Below, in pieces: positions 41,224 through 53,025 of a stretch of DNA of 64,000 bases; position 1 is the stretch's first letter, and every line of letters starts with the position of its first letter. The notes beneath the pieces are model-generated. The model was not told the DNA's origin, ran no database searches, and saw nothing but the letters and a program-made list of their open reading frames with translations. Source of the stretch: an uncultured Planctomycetota bacterium (GTDB taxonomy: Bacteria > Planctomycetota > Planctomycetia > Isosphaerales > Isosphaeraceae); assembly GCA_963823665.1 (NCBI GenBank), contig CAWGMQ010000004.1:1216001-1280000 (forward strand). The letters run 5' to 3'. A program made the translations under genes and the position numbers.

Positions 41224-41838
41224 CTAACGCCCAACCAGATACACGAGCGTGAACACAACCAGCCAGACAGCATCCACAAAATGCCAGTACCACGAAACAA
41301 CTTCCACCGCGGTGTTTCCGGCGGTGATCAGGTTCTTGACACCCAGGCCGAAGATGATGCTCATCACCATCACACCAATCGAAACGTGCAGGGCGTGAAA
41401 GCCGACCAGGGTGAAATACGTCGTTCCGAACAGGTTGCGACTGATGGTGAGCCCCCACTTGCCGATCAGGTCGCTCCACTCCCACATCGTGCCTCCCAGA
41501 AAGAGCGCTCCCAGAACAATGGTCAAGCCCCACCACTTGAGAAACGTGCCATTCCGGCCCCGAGAGAGAGCCTTCTCCGCCAGATGAATCGTCGCGCTGC
41601 TCGAAAAGAGACACGCCGACGCGGCAAGAACCATCGGCAAACGGAAAACCTCGCTCGGCTTGGGATTGCCCGAAGTACTCTGAGAGAGAAAATACACATA
41701 CGCCATGATCAGCGTGCCGAAGAACGAAGCCTCCGAGATGAGGAACGCGATCATGCCGGTTTTCGCGGGAGGCAGCGCAGCATGGCCCTCGACTATCGCA
41801 CGCGGCTGAGCAAACGGCAGCGGATAATCATTACTCAT
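41224..41838 (-). CDS. ctaE: Cytochrome c oxidase subunit III
   Basis: [16 protein letters not shown] and [10 protein letters not shown]. Confidence 0.95.
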
Positions 41839-43478
41839 AGTGCCAATCCGGATCGTCGGGGTGCTTCAGGTCCCAGAGGGGCCGACGGCTGCGCACGGTC
41901 GGAATCGTCTCGAAGTTGTAAGCAGGAGGAGGGGACGTCGAGGCCCATTCGAGCGTCCAGGCGTTCCAGGGATCGTCGCCCGACGGAGCACCGTAGAAGA
42001 GCGAAATCAGGAAGTTCCACGCGAAGATCAAATAGCTCGGCGCCTGAATGAGCGCGCCCACGCCGGTGAGCACGTTCCAGAACTGCCAGCGGACGATCGG
42101 CCTGATAGGTGAAAATCCTCCGCGGCATTCCCAGGATGCCGGCAGACGTGCATCGGCCCGAAGGTGAGGATGAAGCCGATGAGCAAGAGCCAGAAGTGCC
42201 ACGCGGCCAGCCGCTCCGAGTACATCCGGCCCGGTGACTTTGGGATACCAGTAATACATCCCCGCGAAGAGGCCCATCAGGATGCCGCCGATGATCACCC
42301 AGTGAAAATGGCCCACGACAAAGTAGCTGTCGTGGAGCTGATAATCGACCGGCGCCACCGCGAGCATGATGCCCGTCAATCCGCCGATCACGAACATCGA
42401 CAAGAAGCCGAAGCAGAAGAGCATCGGCGCGGCCATGCGAATGCGCCCGCCGTAGATCGTGGCGAGCCAGTTGAACATCTTCACTCCGGTCGGAATGCCC
42501 ACCACCAGGCTGGCCGCGGCGAAATAGACGTCGACCGTCCTGCTCATCCCAACCGTGAACATGTGATGCGCCCAGACTCCGAAGCTGACGAATGCGATGG
42601 CCACGGTCGAGGCCGCCACGAACTCGTAGCCGAAGATCACCTTGCGGGAGAAAACCGGAATCACTTCCGAGACCATGCCGAAGGCCGGCAGAACCAGGAT
42701 GTAGACTTCGGGATGGCCGAAAAACCAGAACAGGTGCTGCCACAAGTAAGGTGAGCCGCCGGCCTGGGCGTCGAAGAAATGCGCGCCCAGATTGCGGTCG
42801 AACCAGAGCATGATCGAGCGCGGCGGTCAGCGGCGGGAGAGCGAACAGGATCTGCACGTTGGCCCAGAATGCCATCCAGGTGTAGAGCGGAATCTTGCGC
42901 AGCGTCATTCCAGGGCAGCGCAGCGAAAGCACCGTGGCGACCAGGTTGATCGCACCCGAGACGCTGCCGATGCCGCTGACGATCAGCCCCAGAATCCAGA
43001 AGTCGGTCGCCGAGCCGCGGGCAAAGGCTCGCTCCGTGAGCGGGGCGTAGGCGAACCAGCCGATCGCCGGCGCCCCTCCGGTGGCAAAGCTGAAATAGGC
43101 GAGCAAGCCGCCGAAAATCGTGACCCATAATCCCAGCGCGTTCAAGCGCGGGAACGCCATGTCGCGCGCGCCGATCTGAAGCGGGACGATGTAGTTGGCC
43201 ACGCCGGCCAGGATGGGCATGGCCACGAAGAAGATCATCGTCGTGCCGTGCATCGTCATCATCTGGTTGAAGAAATCGGCCGAGACGATTCTGGCACCGG
43301 GCCACATGAGCTGAAGGCGCATCACGAGCGCTTCGGCACCGCCGATGAGCAGGAACACGATCGCCACGAGGATGTACATCACGCCGATCTTCTTGTGATC
43401 GACGGTGGTCACCCACTCGTGAAGCACGCCGGTCCATGGCGGGCGCGACAGTGCGGTTTCCTGGTGAGCGAGTGTCAT
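41831..43478 (-). CDS. ctaD: Cytochrome c oxidase subunit I, A1 type (frameshifts near 42820 and 42090-42230)
   Basis: [40 protein letters not shown] and GMPRR. Confidence 0.95.
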
Positions 43479-43539
43479 GAAGGCCGTTATCCTGCAAGTG
43501 AGTCGTCGGCGGTTCAACGAGATGCTATGGACAGGAAAT

Positions 43540-44851: not shown

Positions 44852-46603
44852 ATGGCCGAACAACCTAAAAGCGGTTTCTATATTGCAGTCGGGCTCGTAG
44901 TCGCTGCGCTGATTGGCTTTGCAGTTTATCGCGGCCGCGATGTGATCGCGCCCCCGCCGGCTGCCCCCCCTGGCGGCGGTGCCGGGCAAGCGAAGATCGA
45001 TCCCAAGGAAATCGCACAACCGGCCGAATCCAGCCAGGATACGTCGAGCCCGACCACCGTCAAGGAATACACGTTCAGGCCGGCCGAAAAGCTGCCACCG
45101 GTCAAGGGAACAGCCGCGTACAAGCCGCTCGTCAACAATACGGTGCGATTTGCTCTGAACATATGGGCAGGTTGGGCGCCAATCGTCTTTGCGAATGACG
45201 GGTTCAAGGCCGGAAAAGAATGGACGACGCCGGGCGGAGAGAAGTTCAAGGTCGATCTCGTTCTGATCGACGAGCCGGTTGCCATGCGCGACGCCTACGC
45301 TGCCGGGAGCATTCATATCGGGTGGGCCACGCTGGATATGGTTCCGCTGTTCCTTCAGGGCTTCGTCGACGCGGAAGGCAACCCGACCGACAGCCGGATC
45401 ATGCCGCGCATCTATCAGCAGGTCGATTTCTCGAACGGCGGCGACGGCATCGTCGTGCGCGAGAATATCAAGACGGCAGCCGACCTTCGCGGCAAGAAGA
45501 TGGTGCTCGCGCAGAACTCCCCCTCACATTACTTCGCGCTCAACATGCTGGTCTCCGGCGGCGTGCAGCCGCCGGAAGTCGATATGACGTTCACGCCGAG
45601 CGCATTCGAGGCCGCCTCCGCATTCAACGCTCGCAAGGAATTCTCGGCGTGCGTTTCCTGGGCGCCGGACATTTACAACTTGGCGAAGATCAAGGGAAAC
45701 CGCATGCTGGTGACAACCCAGACTGCCAACCGACTGATCGCCGACGTCTGGTTCGCCCGGGCCGATTTCGCCCGCGATCACGGGCCAATCATCGAGGGCT
45801 TGGTTCGCGGAATCTTCGACGCGATGGAGCAGCTCAAGGAGCAGCCCAACAAGCAAAAGGTCTCCAAGCTCATGGCTGCCGGCTATACCATTCCGGAGGC
45901 CGATGCGCTCGCCATGCTGGGCGACGCCCACAGCACCAACTGGGCCGAGAACTTCCAGTTCTTCATCAACCAGAACAACCCGACCAACTTCGAGGTCATC
46001 TGGCAACGCGCATACATGCTCTATCGCCGGATCGGCTCGATCACGCACCGGCCCGTGCCCTTCGACCAGGTCATGGATTATTCCGTCATCCAAAAGCTGG
46101 GGCAGGAGGAGAAGTACGCGAAGTCGAAGGTGGAATACGAGTCGAGGGTCGCTCCCAAAGACGTGCAAACCGTTCGTACCGAGGGCGAAGAGATTCTGAC
46201 GAACACGGTCGTCATCCACTTTTTCCCCAACAGCTTTGATCCGATGTCAACCGTTGAACGAACGGTCAACGGCAAGAAGGTCGAGGAACGCTATGACCCC
46301 AATGTCGAGAACGTTCTCAAGGAGATCGCGCAACTGGCCGGGCAGTTCGGCACCGCGCGAATCATCATCGAAGGCCATACCGACGGCTCGATGAAAGGCC
46401 AGGTGCCGGTCGAGGCCGTCAAGGACCTTTCCCTCAAGCGCGCCAACGCCATCAAGGAAGCCCTCATCAGCAAGTACAGCGACCTCGACCCCAATCGATT
46501 TAACGTCGATGGCCTGGGGTGGGATCGCCCCGTCGACCCGCTCAATCAGACCAAAAATCGACGGGTCGAGATCAAGGTGCTCACGGCCGAGAAGGCAAAC
46601 TGA
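44852..46603 (+). CDS. ABC substrate-binding protein (NMT1/SsuA-like) fused to a C-terminal OmpA-like peptidoglycan-binding domain
   Basis: N-terminal TM anchor, W.GWAP, SNGGDGIVVR, DLRGK; IEGHTD, LSLKRANAIK and KNRRVEI. Confidence 0.88.
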   Translation: MAEQPKSGFYIAVGLVVAALIGFAVYRGRDVIAPPPAAPPGGGAGQAKIDPKEIAQPAESSQDTSSPTTVKEYTFRPAEKLPPVKGTAAYKPLVNNTVRFALNIWAGWAPIVFANDGFKAGKEWTTPGGEKFKVDLVLIDEPVAMRDAYAAGSIHIGWATLDMVPLFLQGFVDAEGNPTDSRIMPRIYQQVDFSNGGDGIVVRENIKTAADLRGKKMVLAQNSPSHYFALNMLVSGGVQPPEVDMTFTPSAFEAASAFNARKEFSACVSWAPDIYNLAKIKGNRMLVTTQTANRLIADVWFARADFARDHGPIIEGLVRGIFDAMEQLKEQPNKQKVSKLMAAGYTIPEADALAMLGDAHSTNWAENFQFFINQNNPTNFEVIWQRAYMLYRRIGSITHRPVPFDQVMDYSVIQKLGQEEKYAKSKVEYESRVAPKDVQTVRTEGEEILTNTVVIHFFPNSFDPMSTVERTVNGKKVEERYDPNVENVLKEIAQLAGQFGTARIIIEGHTDGSMKGQVPVEAVKDLSLKRANAIKEALISKYSDLDPNRFNVDGLGWDRPVDPLNQTKNRRVEIKVLTAEKAN

Positions 46604-47568
46604 TGAAGGATCTTCGTTTCGCCTTGCGGCGCCGGTTACCGACCTGGCAGGCAGTGCTCATGGGCATTCTGGGCGTGGGCACCTGCCTGTCGATCTGGTG
46701 GTTTGTGACGTCCGGACCGGTCGAAGAGCGGATCATTTCACCCGCGAAAGGGCTGCCCAGCCCGAAGGAGACGTTCGCCAGCTTTCCAAGTCTGTGGTTT
46801 GATCGGGCGCTCACGCGCAACCTCCTGATCACCCTGCGACGGCTTTCTCTGGGGTTCGGGCTGGCCACACTGGTCGGAGTACCGCTGGGAGTGCTCTGCG
46901 GCTGCTTCGATCGGGTGCAAACTTTTTTCATGCCCGTGATTTTGTTCGGCCGCAACATCCCGGTCGCGGCACTCATTCCGCTGACGTTCTCCCTCTTCGA
47001 CATCGGCGAGATGCAAAAGGTGATGTTCATCTTCATCGCCTGCGTGGCATTCGTGGTGTGGGACACCACCCGTGCCATCGAGGAGGTTGGCGGCCAGTAC
47101 ATCGACACAGCTTACACGCTGGGTGCCGGCACCTGGCAGACCATCGGCAAGGTGCTCTTGCCGCTGGCACTACCCAGCGTGTTCAACTCGCTGAGACTGC
47201 TCTTCGGTCTGGCGTTCGGCTACATCATGCTCGCCGAGGTGGTGAAGTTCGGCTCGGAAGCCGGTGGGCTCGGCGATCTCATCAACACGTCGCAGCGCCT
47301 CGGCAACCGCCGGCACGTGCTGCTCATTCTGCTGATCATTCCGGTCGTCGCACTGTGCATCGACCGGTTCTTCTTTTTCGTCCAGGCAGAGCTGTTTCCG
47401 TACCGATACGGCGGCATGGGTCTTCTGGACCGGCTGCTTCGCAGCGTGCTGCACGCCTGGGAAGACCTGCGCTTGTTGATGTGGAGAGCAGTCACGGGAC
47501 AGCTCTGGCGGAAAGCGGTCGGGAAGCCCGCACCGGCCAATGCTCCAGCCGATGCCAAGACGCCATGA
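46603..47568 (+). CDS. ABC permease, SsuC/TauC type
   Basis: LPSP, GVPLG, IPVAALIPL and EAA-like loop YIDTAYTLGA..VLLPLALP. Confidence 0.92.
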   Translation: MKDLRFALRRRLPTWQAVLMGILGVGTCLSIWWFVTSGPVEERIISPAKGLPSPKETFASFPSLWFDRALTRNLLITLRRLSLGFGLATLVGVPLGVLCGCFDRVQTFFMPVILFGRNIPVAALIPLTFSLFDIGEMQKVMFIFIACVAFVVWDTTRAIEEVGGQYIDTAYTLGAGTWQTIGKVLLPLALPSVFNSLRLLFGLAFGYIMLAEVVKFGSEAGGLGDLINTSQRLGNRRHVLLILLIIPVVALCIDRFFFFVQAELFPYRYGGMGLLDRLLRSVLHAWEDLRLLMWRAVTGQLWRKAVGKPAPANAPADAKTP

Positions 47569-48485
47569 GTAATGCTGATCCAAAGCCGGGAGCAGTTGTG
47601 AGCGCAGCAGCCGGCCAGGCCGTCGGCATCGGCCGCGTGCTCGCCGGCGTTCGCCAGCCGGGCGAAGTGCGGCAGCCGCATGTCGTCGAGTTTCGCGGCG
47701 TGACCAAGATGTTCAACGCCGGCAAATCGAACGAATTCACCGCGATTCACAATGTCACGTTCGTCGTTGAAGACCTGGTCGACAAGGGCGAGTTCATCTG
47801 CGTGCTCGGCCCCAGCGGCAGCGGCAAGAGCACGATCCTGCGGCTCATTGCCGGCCTGCGGCCCCAGCATCCTCCAACCACGGGCGAAGTGCTCGTGATG
47901 GGAGAAAAAGTCCTCGGCCCCGGCGCCGACCGCGGCATGGTCTTCCAGGACTACACGAGCTTTGACCATCGCACTGTCCTCGATAACGTGGCATTCGGCC
48001 TGGAATGCCAGGGCGTGCCGCGACGGGAGCGCTATGAGCACGCCCGGCGCTGGATTACACGTGTCGGCCTCGACGTGACCACAGACGAACACAAATACCC
48101 GCACGAGCTCTCCGGCGGCATGCGGCAGCGGGTTGCGATCGCTCGCACCTTGATCCTGCACCCGCGAATCATTCTGATGGACGAGCCGTTCGGAGCGCTC
48201 GACCCGATGACTCGCATGGCAATGCAAGACCTCGTGCTCGAGCTCTGGCGCACGACGCAGGCAACCGTCTTCTTCGTCACCCATTCGATCGAGGAAGCCG
48301 TGTTCCTGGGAGACCGCATTTATGTCGTATCGAACTCGCCCGGAACGATCCTTCACGAGCTGACGATCGACCCTTCGGACCGGCCGTCCAAGGAAATGCA
48401 GCGTGAAGAACGTTTTCAGCAGACGGTATATTATCTGCGTGACCTGATCAGCCAGCTCGAAGAAAGTCGCCGGGCCGGTACCTGA
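47565..48485 (+). CDS. ABC ATPase, SsuB/TauB type
   Basis: GPSGSGKS, LSGGMRQR, ILMDEPFGALD and VTHSIEEA. Confidence 0.95.
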   Translation: MSNADPKPGAVVSAAAGQAVGIGRVLAGVRQPGEVRQPHVVEFRGVTKMFNAGKSNEFTAIHNVTFVVEDLVDKGEFICVLGPSGSGKSTILRLIAGLRPQHPPTTGEVLVMGEKVLGPGADRGMVFQDYTSFDHRTVLDNVAFGLECQGVPRRERYEHARRWITRVGLDVTTDEHKYPHELSGGMRQRVAIARTLILHPRIILMDEPFGALDPMTRMAMQDLVLELWRTTQATVFFVTHSIEEAVFLGDRIYVVSNSPGTILHELTIDPSDRPSKEMQREERFQQTVYYLRDLISQLEESRRAGT

Positions 48486-48525: not shown

Positions 48526-49442
48526 GTGGGCCTGGGCAAATACATCAAGAAGGCATTCCTTTTTCACTGGAACTTGCTCGCGTTCGCAGGCGGCATGGGC
48601 TTCGCCTTCCTCTCCGGGCATCCAGACGTCTTCGCGCCCGTTGTGCTGGCGGCTGAGACCGCCTACCTCGGGTTCCTCGGCACGCATCCTCGCTTCCAGA
48701 GGCACGTCGACGCCCAGGAGCACAAGGCGGCCCGCGCGCAGGTCGAGTGCCGAGGCCGTCCTGCGCTTGATGCGAGCGCTGCCTCCCGCGCAGCTTCGCC
48801 GCTTTCAGGCTTTGAAGGATCGCTGCCTTTCGGTGCGCCAGATCGCCGAGCAGTTGCGCAGCCCGACGGTGAGGCGCCCTGCGCTCACTCGACGAGCTTC
48901 AGCTCGCCGATCTAGACCGCCTGCTCTGGATCTACCTCCGCACTCTCTACACCCAGTACATGCTCGAACGGTTTTTCCAGAGCACCAGCATGCAGGAGAT
49001 AGAGTCAGAGATCAAACGTCTCGAGGAACGCATTCGCCGGCTGGACAAGGAACCCGAATCCGCCAATCGCACGCGGATCAGGCAGTCTCTGCAAGGCAAC
49101 CTGGAAACCGGCAAGTCACGGCTCGCCAATCTGGAAAAGGCCCGCGAGAACTACGACTTGCTTCAGGCCGAGATCGAGAATCTCGAGACAAAGATCCAGT
49201 CGATTACCGAGCTGGCGATCAACCGCAGCGATGCCGAGGCCATCACCGGGCAGGTCGAGCAGATCACGCAGGGTTTGGTCCGCACCGAGCAGACGATCAA
49301 CGACCTGGGATTCGCCACCGGCGGGGAATCGTTCGATTTGACGGTGCCGAGCATCCTGGCGCGAGAGGTTGGCGAAGGAGCTCAGATGGGACAGGAGGCT
49401 TCGCCGCCGCGACGGCGCCAGGACGAGATTCAATTCCTTTGA
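48526..49442 (+). CDS. Membrane-anchored coiled-coil hypothetical protein (two frameshifts at ~48745 and ~48870)
   Basis: Two N-terminal hydrophobic segments, LDRLLWIYLR and a long heptad-rich C-terminus across ORFs 48526-48915, 48641-49615 and 48960-49442. Confidence 0.7.
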
Positions 49443-49467: not shown

Positions 49468-51255
49468 ATGGCTCTCGCAGAGAAACGGCTGGTGCTGGGA
49501 ATCAACTGCGCCTATCACGAGAGCTCGGCTGCCCTCGTGCGCGGCGATCAGGTCGTCTTCGCCGTCGAGGAAGAACGCTTCACCCGGATCAAGCACGCGA
49601 AGCAAGCTCGAGTGACGAACCCCGATGAGCTTCCCTGGAATGCGATCCGCGCATGCCTCGAGTTCGTACCCGAATCGAAGCTCTCTCTGCTCGACGCCAT
49701 CGCCTATTCGCTCGCCCCGGGACGCCGCCTCGCCATGGTTGGGCTTGATCCGTACCAGCGCGACGACAGAACCGGATTCGGCACGCCGCAGGGCGAAGCC
49801 GAGTTTAACTCCCGAGTGCTGGGGATTCCGCACCTGTTCGCCCGCGAGGCGAATGATTCGGCCGTCGCGGATCGATTTCACTTTGTTCCTCACCACCGCG
49901 CGCACGCGGCGAGCGCATTCTACGCATCGCTGTTCCCGTCGGCCGCCATTCTGGTGATCGATGGCATCGGCGAAGCCGCGACGGCGTGGCTCGGCCGAGG
50001 CACGGGCAAGGGACTGGAGCCGCTCGAAGAGATTCCGTATCCGCACTCGATCGGAATGCTCTGGGAACGGGTGGCCGTGTATCTCGGCTTCACCGAGTTC
50101 GACGCCTGCAAGGTCATGGGGCTGGCCGCCTACGGAGACCAAACGCGGTTCGCAGCGGAGCTTGATCTTCTCTTCCCGATTCTGGATAAACGCGGAGGCG
50201 TGATCGGGAAAGACGCGCCGCCTTTCCGCATCGACTCGGAGATTGCACGGCTGCGAGCCGATGACGTGTCCGGACTCGAAGCGCTCTTCGGACCCAGGCG
50301 CAGCCCGGGCGAATCGCCCACGCTCGCTCGGTTTGCCGACTTCGCCGCGTCCTTGCAACGCCGAACCGAGCAGGCGGTGCTCGCACTCGCTTGGCGGCTT
50401 TTTCGAGCAACCGAAGAACGGTATCTCGTTTTCGCAGGAGGACTGGCACTCAATTGCGTCTCGAACGCCGAGCTCGAGCGTCACGGTCCTTTTCGATCCC
50501 TGTTCGTACCCTGTGCGGCCCACGACGCCGGAACCGCGATCGGAGCAGCACTCGACGTTGCGCATGAAGAAGCCATGACCGCTCAAGAAATTCGAACCTA
50601 CCAGCCGCGGATGCACACTTCGTTCCTGGGTCCGAAGTATCGGGCTGCCGCGATTGAATCAGCCCTTGTGCAGGGGGGCTATTCGTTCCAGAAAGTCGTC
50701 GATCCTGCCGGCATGGCAGCGGCTTTGATCGCCGAGGGGTTCCTGGTCGGGTGGTTCCAAGGTCGAATGGAATTCGGTCCCAGAGCTCTGGGCCACCGGT
50801 CGCTGCTCGCCGATCCGCGCGATGCCCGGATTTGCGATAGGCTCAACCGCAGAATCAAACACCGCGAGCCATTCCAGCCATTCGGTGCGTCGGTGTTGGC
50901 CGAAGAGGCCCGGCACTGGTTCCAAACGCCGCGGCGGCGGTCGCGGGCCGCTTTGTGCCGCAGTTTCATGAATGTCGCCTATCCCGTCCGATTCAAGCAA
51001 GAAGACCGCATTCCGGCCGTGCTGCATCATGACCACACATGCCGGGTGCAGTTGGTGTACGCGAAACAGAACCGACTGTTTCATTCGCTGATCAGCCAAT
51101 TCCAGCAGCTCACCGGGGTGCCGCTCGTTCTGAATACGTCATTCAACGATCAGGAGCCTCTGGTGGCGACTCCCGATGATGCGCTCAAGACATTTGCGCG
51201 TTCCGAGATCGACGCCCTATTTCTGGGAGACTACCTTGTCCGCCGGCCGACTTAG
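49468..51255 (+). CDS. Carbamoyltransferase, NodU/CmcH/TobZ family
   Basis: EEERFTRIKH, HHRAHAASAF, DGIGE, KVMGLAAYG, FGPRALGHRS and LNTSFN. Confidence 0.95.
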   Translation: MALAEKRLVLGINCAYHESSAALVRGDQVVFAVEEERFTRIKHAKQARVTNPDELPWNAIRACLEFVPESKLSLLDAIAYSLAPGRRLAMVGLDPYQRDDRTGFGTPQGEAEFNSRVLGIPHLFAREANDSAVADRFHFVPHHRAHAASAFYASLFPSAAILVIDGIGEAATAWLGRGTGKGLEPLEEIPYPHSIGMLWERVAVYLGFTEFDACKVMGLAAYGDQTRFAAELDLLFPILDKRGGVIGKDAPPFRIDSEIARLRADDVSGLEALFGPRRSPGESPTLARFADFAASLQRRTEQAVLALAWRLFRATEERYLVFAGGLALNCVSNAELERHGPFRSLFVPCAAHDAGTAIGAALDVAHEEAMTAQEIRTYQPRMHTSFLGPKYRAAAIESALVQGGYSFQKVVDPAGMAAALIAEGFLVGWFQGRMEFGPRALGHRSLLADPRDARICDRLNRRIKHREPFQPFGASVLAEEARHWFQTPRRRSRAALCRSFMNVAYPVRFKQEDRIPAVLHHDHTCRVQLVYAKQNRLFHSLISQFQQLTGVPLVLNTSFNDQEPLVATPDDALKTFARSEIDALFLGDYLVRRPT

Positions 51256-52243
51256 CGTCTCGGCAGCGAGGGTCCGAGTCGAGCCGCCCGAAGCGTTGCG
51301 CTTCGAGCCGGTGCGCGATCGATACGGCCCGCGGCTGGCGCTCGTCTTCGGAAATCACGCGCGGGACGGGATGTGCCCATACTATCTCGGGAGCCGGTGC
51401 TTGCACTGCGACATCGGGGCAGGGGAGGGAGCAGCGTTCGATCTCGAGGCGAACCGCGGCCGACTCGCGTGGTTCGCCGGCTATTATCGAGCGATCCTGG
51501 GCTCGGTAAGCCACCTGGTCATCTACAATTCCGGCTCCGTGCTGAACCCCGGGGAAATGCCGCCGGACTTTCTGGGCGAGATCGCCGCCTTCGCACGATC
51601 CTTGCCGGCCGTCCGCGTCCTTTCACTCGACTCACGCGAGGCCTTTATCCAGCGCGAGAGTCTTCGACCGATTCTGGATGTTGCAGGTGCGCAAATCACG
51701 GTCAGACCAGTTCTGGGGGTCGAGTCATCGGACGATCGAATTCGCAATGAAGTCCTCAGGAAGGTGATGCCGCGCGAGAAGATCATCCGCGTTTTCCGCG
51801 ACTTGGGTGAGCTTTCAGCCGAATACGGGCCGGACCGAATTGGAGTCGATGTGAACGTCGTCATCGGCAGTCCGGGTACTACGAGTGAGACAGCGGTGTC
51901 CGATGCCGCGGATACGGCACTCTTCGCGCTACGAGCGGGGTCCGAGCACGGGGTGCGAGTCGACCTGAATCTGCACCCGTACTATAGTGGACAGCGCGGG
52001 CGTGAATTTTTTCCCGATCACGGTCGCTGCTCGGTTGCAACAACCGTGACCGCGGCTTCGGCGATTGCGGAGTTGGTGCGATCGGCTGGGGCGCAGACGA
52101 ACGTCTTCATCGGATGGCAGGATGAAGGTCATGACTGCGAGCAGAACGAGCGATCTCTTGAATTGAAACGCGCGATGGCCGCCTTCGACCGATTCAATCA
52201 GACAAATAATCCTCGAGTGCTTCTGGAAAGCGGGCTGACATGA
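51236..52243 (+). CDS. Atypical radical SAM enzyme resembling the RaSEA/TIGR01210 family
   Basis: CPYYLGSRCLHC (CX7CX2C), IYNSGSVLNPGE, DSR and LGVESSDDRIRNEVLRK; TTG start with GGAG overlapping the carbamoyltransferase stop. Confidence 0.7.
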   Translation: MSAGRLSVSAARVRVEPPEALRFEPVRDRYGPRLALVFGNHARDGMCPYYLGSRCLHCDIGAGEGAAFDLEANRGRLAWFAGYYRAILGSVSHLVIYNSGSVLNPGEMPPDFLGEIAAFARSLPAVRVLSLDSREAFIQRESLRPILDVAGAQITVRPVLGVESSDDRIRNEVLRKVMPREKIIRVFRDLGELSAEYGPDRIGVDVNVVIGSPGTTSETAVSDAADTALFALRAGSEHGVRVDLNLHPYYSGQRGREFFPDHGRCSVATTVTAASAIAELVRSAGAQTNVFIGWQDEGHDCEQNERSLELKRAMAAFDRFNQTNNPRVLLESGLT

Positions 52244-53025
52244 GTATCTTTCGCGACAATCTGTTTGCGGGAAAAGTTGCCCTGGTCACCGGCGGGGCGA
52301 CGGGAATCGGCCTTGGCATCGCGACGGCGCTTGCACAGCATGGCGCTTCCCTGGCGCTTGCCAGCCGGAATGAAGAAAACCTTCAAGTTGCCGCGAGGCA
52401 TATCCGAGAATCGACAAAACAACGATGCTTGACGATCGTCACCGACGTTCGTCAGCCGGAAGCGGTTGGGGCGGCCGTGACGCGCATCGTCCAGGAACTG
52501 GGCTCGCTCGATCTCGTGATCAACAATGCAGCCGGAAACTTCTTTTGCCCATCCGCCAAGCTGAGCCCCAACGGCTTCGGCACAGTGATCGACATCGACG
52601 CCAAGGGCACCTGGAATGTCTCCCGAGCTGCGTATGACGCGTGGCTCGGAGCGCACGGAGGAACTATCCTGAACATCAGCGCCACGCTGCACTACGGCGG
52701 CACGCCCGGCCAGGCACACGTCGCCGCCGCCAAGGCGGCCGTGGATGCGCTCACGCGCACGCTCGCCGTGGAGTGGGGCCCTCAAAACATCCGAGTGAAC
52801 GCCATAGCCCCCGGCCCAATTGGAGACACCGAAGGCGTGCGCCGTCTCTTACCCGGCGAGGCCGCAGAAAAAATGCGCCAGGTCATCCCAACTCGAAAGC
52901 TCGGCGCGATCAGCGACATCGTGAGCGCGGCCTTGTTCCTGCTCAGCGACGCGGCCGCCAACGTGAACGGAGCCATCCTGGTCTGCGACGGCGGCCTCTC
53001 GCTCACCGGCCGATTCCTCGAATAG
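52240..53025 (+). CDS. SDR, 2,4-dienoyl-CoA reductase (DECR/FadH)-like
   Basis: TGGATGIG, NNAAGNF, LSPNGF, HVAAAKA and IRVNAIAPGPI. Confidence 0.9.
   Translation: MSIFRDNLFAGKVALVTGGATGIGLGIATALAQHGASLALASRNEENLQVAARHIRESTKQRCLTIVTDVRQPEAVGAAVTRIVQELGSLDLVINNAAGNFFCPSAKLSPNGFGTVIDIDAKGTWNVSRAAYDAWLGAHGGTILNISATLHYGGTPGQAHVAAAKAAVDALTRTLAVEWGPQNIRVNAIAPGPIGDTEGVRRLLPGEAAEKMRQVIPTRKLGAISDIVSAALFLLSDAAANVNGAILVCDGGLSLTGRFLE

Follow-up and report, generated by a model that had tools for sequence, protein, structure and literature searches.

A class III carbamoyltransferase gene coupled to a RaSEA/QueL-branch radical SAM gene in a planctomycete, and its counterparts in other bacteria and archaea

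The window analysed here is a stretch of 64,000 nucleotides (nt) from an uncultured planctomycete of the Isosphaeraceae (assembly GCA_963823665.1, contig CAWGMQ010000004.1, positions 1,216,001 to 1,280,000); the source genome has 16.5 Mb and is 92% complete. Three overlapping genes lie at window positions 49468-53025, and the first two are the core of the unit described in this study.

49468-51255, + strand: carbamoyltransferase, class III (Kae1-like and YrdC-like domains; PF02543 and PF16861), 595 amino acids (aa), stop codon TAG at 51253-55; core part
51236-52243, + strand: radical S-adenosylmethionine (SAM) protein of the RaSEA/QueL branch, 335 aa, CX7CX2C, assigned by a weak match to TIGR01210, an AlphaFold2 (AF2) model and Foldseek/VIA; core part
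52240-53025, + strand: short-chain dehydrogenase/reductase (SDR) resembling 2,4-dienoyl-CoA reductase, translationally coupled here; likely a local passenger

The radical SAM open reading frame (ORF) has a TTG start, 6 nt after GGAG and 20 nt within the 3' end of the carbamoyltransferase gene, and its TGA overlaps the ATG of the SDR gene as ATGA (52240-43). All three ORFs are open, unlike the split genes nearby. The radical SAM product carries CPYYLGSRCLHC (C47, C55, C58), IYNSGSVLNPGE, DSR and LGVESSDDRIRNEVLRK, and does not contain CX3CX2C. The first-pass annotation, made from the letters alone, had pointed out these motifs, the missing CX3CX2C, both gene overlaps and the intact carbamoyltransferase, all of which were confirmed in the sequence.

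The three cysteines are invariant in 83/83 aligned close homologues (drawn from 120 listed) and in 49/49 diverse sequences from genome loci, so the triad is not a chance feature; across the family the spacing is CX6-7CX2C. In the AF2 model (pLDDT 93.6, pTM 0.91) the triad follows strand E31-37. Radical SAM enzymes fill the top 25 rows of a VIA-align search of 48,161 chains and almost all of the Foldseek rows listed. QueL is the first VIA-align match (Z 17.4, root mean square deviation 3.4 over 226 residues), tied within the margin of the method with NosL (Z 16.6) and BioB (Z 16.5). Foldseek places Elp3 first and QueL second (E 6e-7), and QueL is the sole PDB sequence match below E 0.1 (profile, E 3e-6). 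Thus the radical SAM fold and the conserved cysteines expected by the first-pass annotation were both recovered.

The protein has no Pfam match at E <=1, PF04055 included, and its match to TIGR01210, the RaSEA model, is weak (E 1e-7; 31.6 bits vs the curated cut-off of 212.15). Among 8000 scored candidates 439 homologues were found; the named close ones come from Isosphaerales and other planctomycetes, and where sources name the products they are nearly always called 'hypothetical protein', as had been anticipated. A profile search of 1.84 billion representatives yielded 60 proteins at E <=1e-30 and a further tier of 1505 to E 0.001. TIGR01210 is the best model for 77/83 scanned listed matches, most of them below its cut-off, and 13 family representatives score 0-62 bits on it. 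In a FastTree phylogeny of 121 sequences, the 44 members of the family group together (0.87), on a branch (0.98) separate from all 14 over-cut-off TIGR01210 proteins, which are database proteins and not tested enzymes. The core motif residues G100, S101, R134, G161, E163, R170 and K176 are common to the family and the over-cut-off set, and non-canonical cysteine spacing is the rule in TIGR01210-positive proteins too. Specific to the family are N207 and the invariant residues R76, H93, E135, D243, N245, H247, R264, H299 and D300. No ArcS or archaeal TGT above cut-off was found in the source genome, at its 92% completeness; the sole TGT-like gene reaches 127/350 bits on TIGR00432 and 30/440 bits on NF040592. 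By these sequence comparisons, the radical SAM protein is a relative of RaSEA rather than RaSEA itself, and it is predicted to act like RaSEA and QueL while being neither one. The RaSEA/TIGR01210 kinship suggested at first pass therefore holds.

The carbamoyltransferase matches PF02543 (E 5e-42) and PF16861 (E 8e-63), both over cut-off. The catalytic H17 and the metal ligands H142, H146, D165 and D353 (HxxxH..D..D) align with GdmN H27, H133, H137, D156 and D333, and K464-x-R466 and S558-x-N560 are present; judged by the alignment to GdmN and this KxR..SxN signature, the catalytic machinery is intact. Gln470 stands in place of the Arg of the KxRExFRPF motif, as it does in 6/66 homologues linked to the radical SAM gene. 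The protein belongs to a subfamily marked by YPHSxGxLWE (the 'WE clade'), which carries an insertion after KH and is one clade (0.955) in a tree of 133 transferases. Members of this clade linked to the radical SAM gene, solo members (among them a 24-member clade) and members linked to a non-ribosomal peptide synthetase (NRPS) are intermixed. PDB class III members score 413-470 bits on the subfamily profile, the radical SAM-linked members at least 770; on the NodU model NF041651 the score is 110 bits vs a cut-off of 1000. K45, N51, R87, E110, W199, E200 and T300 are fixed in all three kinds of subfamily members and not in 24 other planctomycete transferases; R87, W199 and E200 map, via the GdmN alignment, to pocket helices 1 and 2. 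In the YrdC-like domain, K464, R466, M501, H520, D522, R526 and N556-N560 match the 24 ordinary transferases. One further WE-clade protein (P0273, 1154 aa) has a B12-binding radical SAM domain fused to the N-terminus of the carbamoyltransferase.

The association of the two genes was analysed by scanning 185,579 species genomes; since a match to one of two peptide patterns was required, divergent members are under-sampled. The 58 loci found carry 15 phylum labels between them (10 loci are unlabelled, and some labels resemble mis-bins). The coupling proved to be conserved, as the first-pass annotation had proposed to check, but the unit is not confined to bacteria as supposed there: four loci (L023, L024, L043, L266) are archaeal. 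The carbamoyltransferase is directly upstream in 55/58 loci, adjacent in 46 and fused in 9. The fused ORFs have ~870 aa and are found in separate parts of the transferase tree; in the AF2 model of one natural fusion (L025:6291-8924, 11 sequences; pLDDT 81, pTM 0.75) all three domains fold and the domain contact is not firmly placed. Two of the three loci without a transferase (L030 and L033) lie at contig edges; the start of the L030 scaffold overlaps, by 43 nt of a 7-mer repeat, the end of another scaffold from that genome which bears a transferase. By whole-genome profile search, the radical enzyme is present in 4/401 Planctomycetota, all with the transferase, in 2/36 other genomes of the taxonomic family of the source genome, and in 3/301 small-genome archaea, two with the transferase and one (G578) with a GNAT-like gene.

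In the reverse direction, 233 of the 401 Planctomycetota have some carbamoyltransferase. The five planctomycete transferases that reach at least 770 bits on the subfamily profile each have a RaSEA-branch enzyme after them (four of the family, one sister); the next one (678 bits) adjoins an NRPS, and none of the next 24 fetched has a RaSEA-branch enzyme within 1.5 kb. A metagenome scan for the transferase motif returned 121 stretches and 79 distinct loci with flanks, of which 2 have no transferase, 32 are too short and 45 are informative: 14 with the family (4 fused), 6 with a sister RaSEA-like enzyme and 25 with neither. The WE clade partners with at least three different RaSEA-related branches. 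Thus the radical enzyme is almost always found with the transferase and the reverse does not hold; the solo and NRPS-linked members rule out a subfamily exclusive to this radical enzyme. No further carriers with other partners were found in 250 additional Micrarchaeota-group or 250 cyanobacterial genomes. A role in phage DNA modification was rejected: of 38 IMG/VR pattern matches 0 were confirmed, the transferase motif gave 0 there, and no relative was found in 50,697 phage records. We conclude that the carbamoyltransferase and the radical SAM protein almost certainly form a functional pair.

The third gene of the locus does not share this distribution. The SDR scores 287/321 bits on PRK07576 and 233/318 bits on PRK07677, both under cut-off, and has an HxxxK motif that we take to be of the dienoyl-CoA-reductase type. 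Its orthologue was found by tblastn in 2/58 loci only (L002 and L003), which are close kin with radical SAM proteins 78-86% identical, and is not present in the Isosphaerales loci L004-L006. An unrelated SDR (26% identical) after the pair in L014 was found by Pfam and missed by tblastn, so the count refers to orthologues only. The SDR, earlier taken for a member of the unit, is likely a passenger.

Other partners of the two enzymes bear on the nature of the acceptor. An NRPS adjoins the WE-clade transferase in L246, L199, L201 and L245. In Mycetohabitans rhizoxinica plasmid pBRH01 (L246:14995-31466, NC_014718.1) the transferase is accompanied by a methyltransferase and a four-module NRPS; no paper on this cluster was found in the literature search, and the cultured host is one where the acceptor of the transferase could be identified. 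Methyltransferases of a single family (43-57% identity) recur in these contexts: one is fused to the transferase in L199, another to this radical enzyme in P0144, a third comes after the transferase in L246 and a fourth is close to the pair in L024. This links the radical enzyme to the chemistry of the NRPS-linked members. In Streptomyces clavuligerus (L247) the WE-clade transferase is near a CAS-like dioxygenase and a glycosyltransferase, named by sequence inspection, and in metagenome locus L148 it is followed by a TauD-family dioxygenase gene. Metagenome loci also contain genes for an aminotransferase, SHMT, a DDAH-like protein and a radical SAM protein that by eye resembles KamA. PRMT5-like methyltransferases are directly upstream of the pair in L023 and L024, and MATE, EamA or MFS transporters flank some loci. 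In G578 (L267:8212-9890, contig C6) the family radical SAM gene is ATGA-coupled to a 248-aa GNAT-like gene (P0393), with no carbamoyltransferase beside it; no WE-clade transferase was found in that archaeal genome, and no homologue of P0393 beyond itself. This substitution suggests that the partner enzyme supplies N-acylation. A carbamoyl-phosphate source is present in the source genome and in 3/5 small archaeal carriers. Scanning 109 neighbour proteins chosen from 294 clusters revealed no tgt, que, arcS or RNA-binding gene except a divergent pseudouridine synthase in one lineage. The mix of Lys/Arg and Glu among the subfamily-fixed residues would suit a zwitterion. Because the partners include NRPS, amino-acid dioxygenases and methyltransferases, an amino-acid-like acceptor is favoured over tRNA, sugar or lipid, and the acceptor is probably a small amino-acid-like molecule. 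The neighbourhoods thus point away from the nucleoside, sugar or lipid suggested by the first-pass annotation, with the nucleoside kept in one of the alternatives below.

A DDAH/arginine-deiminase-like gene was also observed after a RaSEA-like gene in one locus (L067:208-2296) and before a WE-clade transferase in another (L132:3829-6239).

The pair can be compared with several known systems. ArcS attaches a lysine and RaSEA removes the carbon chain of this lysine (PMC11298593); both RaSEA and QueL are reported to break C-N bonds (PMC11298593, PMC7694415). RaSEA is the nearest sequence family of the window enzyme and has the same wide-spaced Cys triad and NSGS, SR, GxE and R..K motifs, whereas the window enzyme is far below the model cut-off, forms its own clade, and has a carbamoyltransferase, sometimes fused, as a partner in a genome with no ArcS or archaeal TGT found. 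QueL (PDB 6p78), the top VIA match, has CxxCD, NSGS and GxE..D..R in common with it, while the window enzyme is ~80 residues longer, has no queuosine salvage gene among its scanned neighbours and is coupled to a biosynthetic transferase. Queuosine salvage neighbourhoods include a transporter, a hydrolase and tgt. The by-product of RaSEA is an imine. An archaeosine or queuosine role of the window enzyme was rejected on its below-cut-off score, its scanned neighbours and the lack of ArcS and archaeal TGT over cut-off in the genome searched; QueC of the genome is unlinked. The window transferase shares the two-domain layout, metal ligands and catalytic His with GdmN, NovN and TobZ (PMC9633730) and StdF (PMC13174530), but its subfamily is a separate one, with pocket residues not shared by other transferases and the insertion after KH. 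In class III carbamoyltransferases, carbamoyl-AMP is formed from carbamoyl phosphate and ATP in the YrdC-like domain, and transfer takes place in the Kae1-like domain (PMC9654439, PMC9633730). NodU-like StdF carbamoylates the epsilon-amine of lysine to give homocitrulline, and with StdDE this carbamoylation is followed by C-H hydroxylation (PMC13174530).

We tentatively propose, with rather more doubt than belief in the scheme as a whole, that an amine is carbamoylated and the adjoining C-N bond is then cut by radical chemistry. The YrdC-like domain would convert carbamoyl phosphate and ATP into carbamoyl-AMP, as in the rest of its family, and the Kae1-like domain would transfer the carbamoyl group to a zwitterionic amine, the model case being lysine to homocitrulline. 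In the radical enzyme C47, C55 and C58 would hold a [4Fe-4S] cluster, at which SAM would be cleaved to the 5'-deoxyadenosyl radical. Hydrogen abstraction could then be followed by C-N scission next to the ureido group, giving a ureido fragment and an aldehyde or cyclic imine. C-N cleavage is proposed because RaSEA and QueL break C-N bonds, and the order, transfer and then cleavage, would mirror that of ArcS and RaSEA.

Several observations weigh against this scheme. The fold leaves the reaction open, because the Z-score of QueL is within 1 of those of NosL and BioB and Elp3 tops the Foldseek matches. QueL shares 16-17% identity with the protein and one TIGR01210-positive protein 23%, and the family-specific invariant residues differ in TIGR01210-positive proteins. 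The radical SAM-linked transferases are not a single clade, and the transferase is independent of the radical enzyme, as the 25 informative metagenome loci with neither family nor sister enzyme indicate. A 0.8 Mb Micrarchaeota metagenome-assembled genome (MAG; L016) has the radical enzyme and no transferase was found in it. The GNAT call in the single genome G578 is based on the atlas feature score alone, with Pfam blank. In 2/5 small archaeal carriers, which are MAGs and may be incomplete, neither carbamoyl phosphate synthetase (CPS) nor carbamate kinase was found. Finally, the cleavage of free homocitrulline would produce urea and a cyclic imine, which is costly and has no obvious use, and therefore the true acceptor may be larger.

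The main alternative keeps the same unit and acceptor; its radical step oxidises, cyclises or rearranges the substrate with the C-N bond retained, or precedes carbamoylation and creates the group that receives the carbamoyl. The 2-oxoglutarate dioxygenase genes that come after transferases of this subfamily in L148 and L247 would fit such a modification, for which StdF and StdDE (PMC13174530) provide a precedent, and the invariant His, Asp and Glu residues are not in RaSEA-type proteins. A useful product, such as a secondary metabolite, is also easier to picture, with transporters at some loci. Both characterised relatives nevertheless cleave C-N bonds and have NSGS, (D/E)SR, G(L/V)E and R..K in common with the family, and we regard a reaction that retains the bond as possible but unlikely.

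It is improbable that the unit instead modifies a nucleoside, a tRNA or a protein side chain, for example a carbamoylated base or protein lysine that is then trimmed. The substrate of RaSEA is tRNA and that of QueL a deazaguanine base, class III transferases share their fold with the t6A enzymes, and NMT1/THI5-like or Bmp-type binding proteins by many loci and the PRMT5-like genes in L023 and L024 could be read in this way. Against a macromolecular substrate stand the very patchy distribution in the family and phylum, the near lack of RNA-related genes among the scanned neighbours, the lack of an over-cut-off ArcS or archaeal TGT in the source genome and of relatives in IMG/VR or the phage records, and the acceptor-pocket residues shared with NRPS-linked members.

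A mechanism resembling TsaC/TsaD is very improbable. In it an aminoacyl-carbamoyl-AMP made from an amino acid and CO2 would be transferred, and the radical enzyme would trim off the amino acid, leaving a plain carbamoyl group with the nitrogen of that amino acid. This would be the closest parallel to ArcS and RaSEA, with lysine as the nitrogen donor, and would agree with the two archaeal carriers in which CPS and carbamate kinase were not found; these MAGs may be incomplete, the checked YrdC-like residues match those of 24 ordinary transferases, and many members have no trimming partner. A three-gene pathway with the SDR tailoring a sugar or lipid, for which the ATGA overlap in the window and the SDR of L014 would speak, is very unlikely indeed, given the two closely related loci with the orthologue, its absence from L004-L006 and its dienoyl-CoA-reductase-like best models.

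The genes upstream of the pair are recurrent but optional neighbours, identified by Pfam and NCBIfam.

44852-46603, + strand: NMT1-like binding protein-OmpA fusion
46519-47568, + strand: ABC permease
47565-48485, + strand: ABC ATPase
48526-48915 and 48960-49442, + strand: coiled-coil gene in two ORFs

The coiled-coil gene is a single 306-aa ORF in L004 and L006, and the gene of cytochrome oxidase subunit I (cox1, 41831-43517) is likewise broken into two ORFs in the window; both splits are probably assembly frameshifts. Promoter and terminator scans and the GC profile gave nothing informative. Riboswitches, including preQ1, were not found in 27 sources, where the only matches were to Acido-Lenti-1, tmRNA and part of a group II intron; the Acido-Lenti-1 RNA match of the window is at 2428-2472 on the minus strand (39.3 bits vs the gathering threshold of 37).

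The best model of the upstream binding protein is TIGR03427 (65 of 334 bits). NMT1/THI5-like or Bmp-type binding proteins flank many pair loci, and an NMT1-like one is present in 15/58 pair loci of at least 7 kb, in 3/7 sister loci and in 0/18 solo-transferase loci; in these counts the profile was built partly from the counted proteins, flanking sequence is not the same in each set, and related loci are not independent. NMT1-like genes and the pair occur, judged by eye, in about seven arrangements. Many of these binding proteins, and the upstream genes of the window, are part of the same type of operon as the PspA/AAA+/ABC/PBPB-OmpA operon (Ravi et al. 2024, PMC11237479); the words 'radical' and 'carbamoyl' are absent from the main text of that paper, whereas in the present loci the pair or a sister radical enzyme recurs in such operons. 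In L090:395-10566 and L091:9462-19998 an operon with vWA, substrate-binding protein (SBP)-OmpA, coiled-coil, PspA-like, second SBP, ABC and AAA genes ends in a sister RaSEA-like gene (CX4CX2C), without a carbamoyltransferase.

We speculate that the RaSEA/QueL branch could be a general toolkit for tagging and then cutting amines, with swappable taggers (amidination by ArcS, carbamoylation here, acetylation by GNAT in G578, the DDAH-like partner in L067), and that a diffusible ureido compound made by the pair might be imported or sensed by the NMT1-like proteins and signal to the PspA/AAA envelope operon and sensor kinases; we consider this quite improbable.

Other RaSEA-like genes were observed in different contexts. 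In a recurrent operon of small archaeal genomes (L268, L269, L271, L272) a RaSEA-like radical SAM gene occurs with DUF6190, DHDPS-family and Glu/Leu/Phe/Val-dehydrogenase-like genes and a divergent helix-turn-helix gene, and in P0241 the radical SAM protein is fused to DUF6190; this operon looks like an undescribed amino-acid pathway. A planctomycete operon (L092:8710-12470) contains asparagine-synthase-like, RaSEA-related radical SAM and halogenase-like genes. TIR domains fused to a RaSEA-like radical SAM domain (P0217, P0221, P0251) could be anti-phage signalling enzymes.

In the literature searched, which leaves out most subscription journals, no title or abstract describes a carbamoyltransferase paired with a RaSEA/QueL-type enzyme, and the term 'TIGR01210' is absent from the searched papers. 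The two genes thus form a rare and apparently undescribed unit that spans bacteria and archaea and includes an uncharacterised subfamily of radical SAM proteins. Within the branch, the characterised members that we found are RaSEA and QueL, both of which act on deazaguanine derivatives; the family described here is invisible to Pfam and mostly annotated as 'hypothetical', yet in both domains of life it keeps to one partner. The two enzymes form a self-contained system with a predictable donor, carbamoyl phosphate, so that the radical reaction should be discoverable from two genes or one fusion. Because the unit is rare (4/401 planctomycete genomes), the gain would be for enzymology and natural products rather than for core physiology. 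If C-N cleavage is indeed the reaction, the logic of ArcS and RaSEA would extend past tRNA into small-molecule metabolism.

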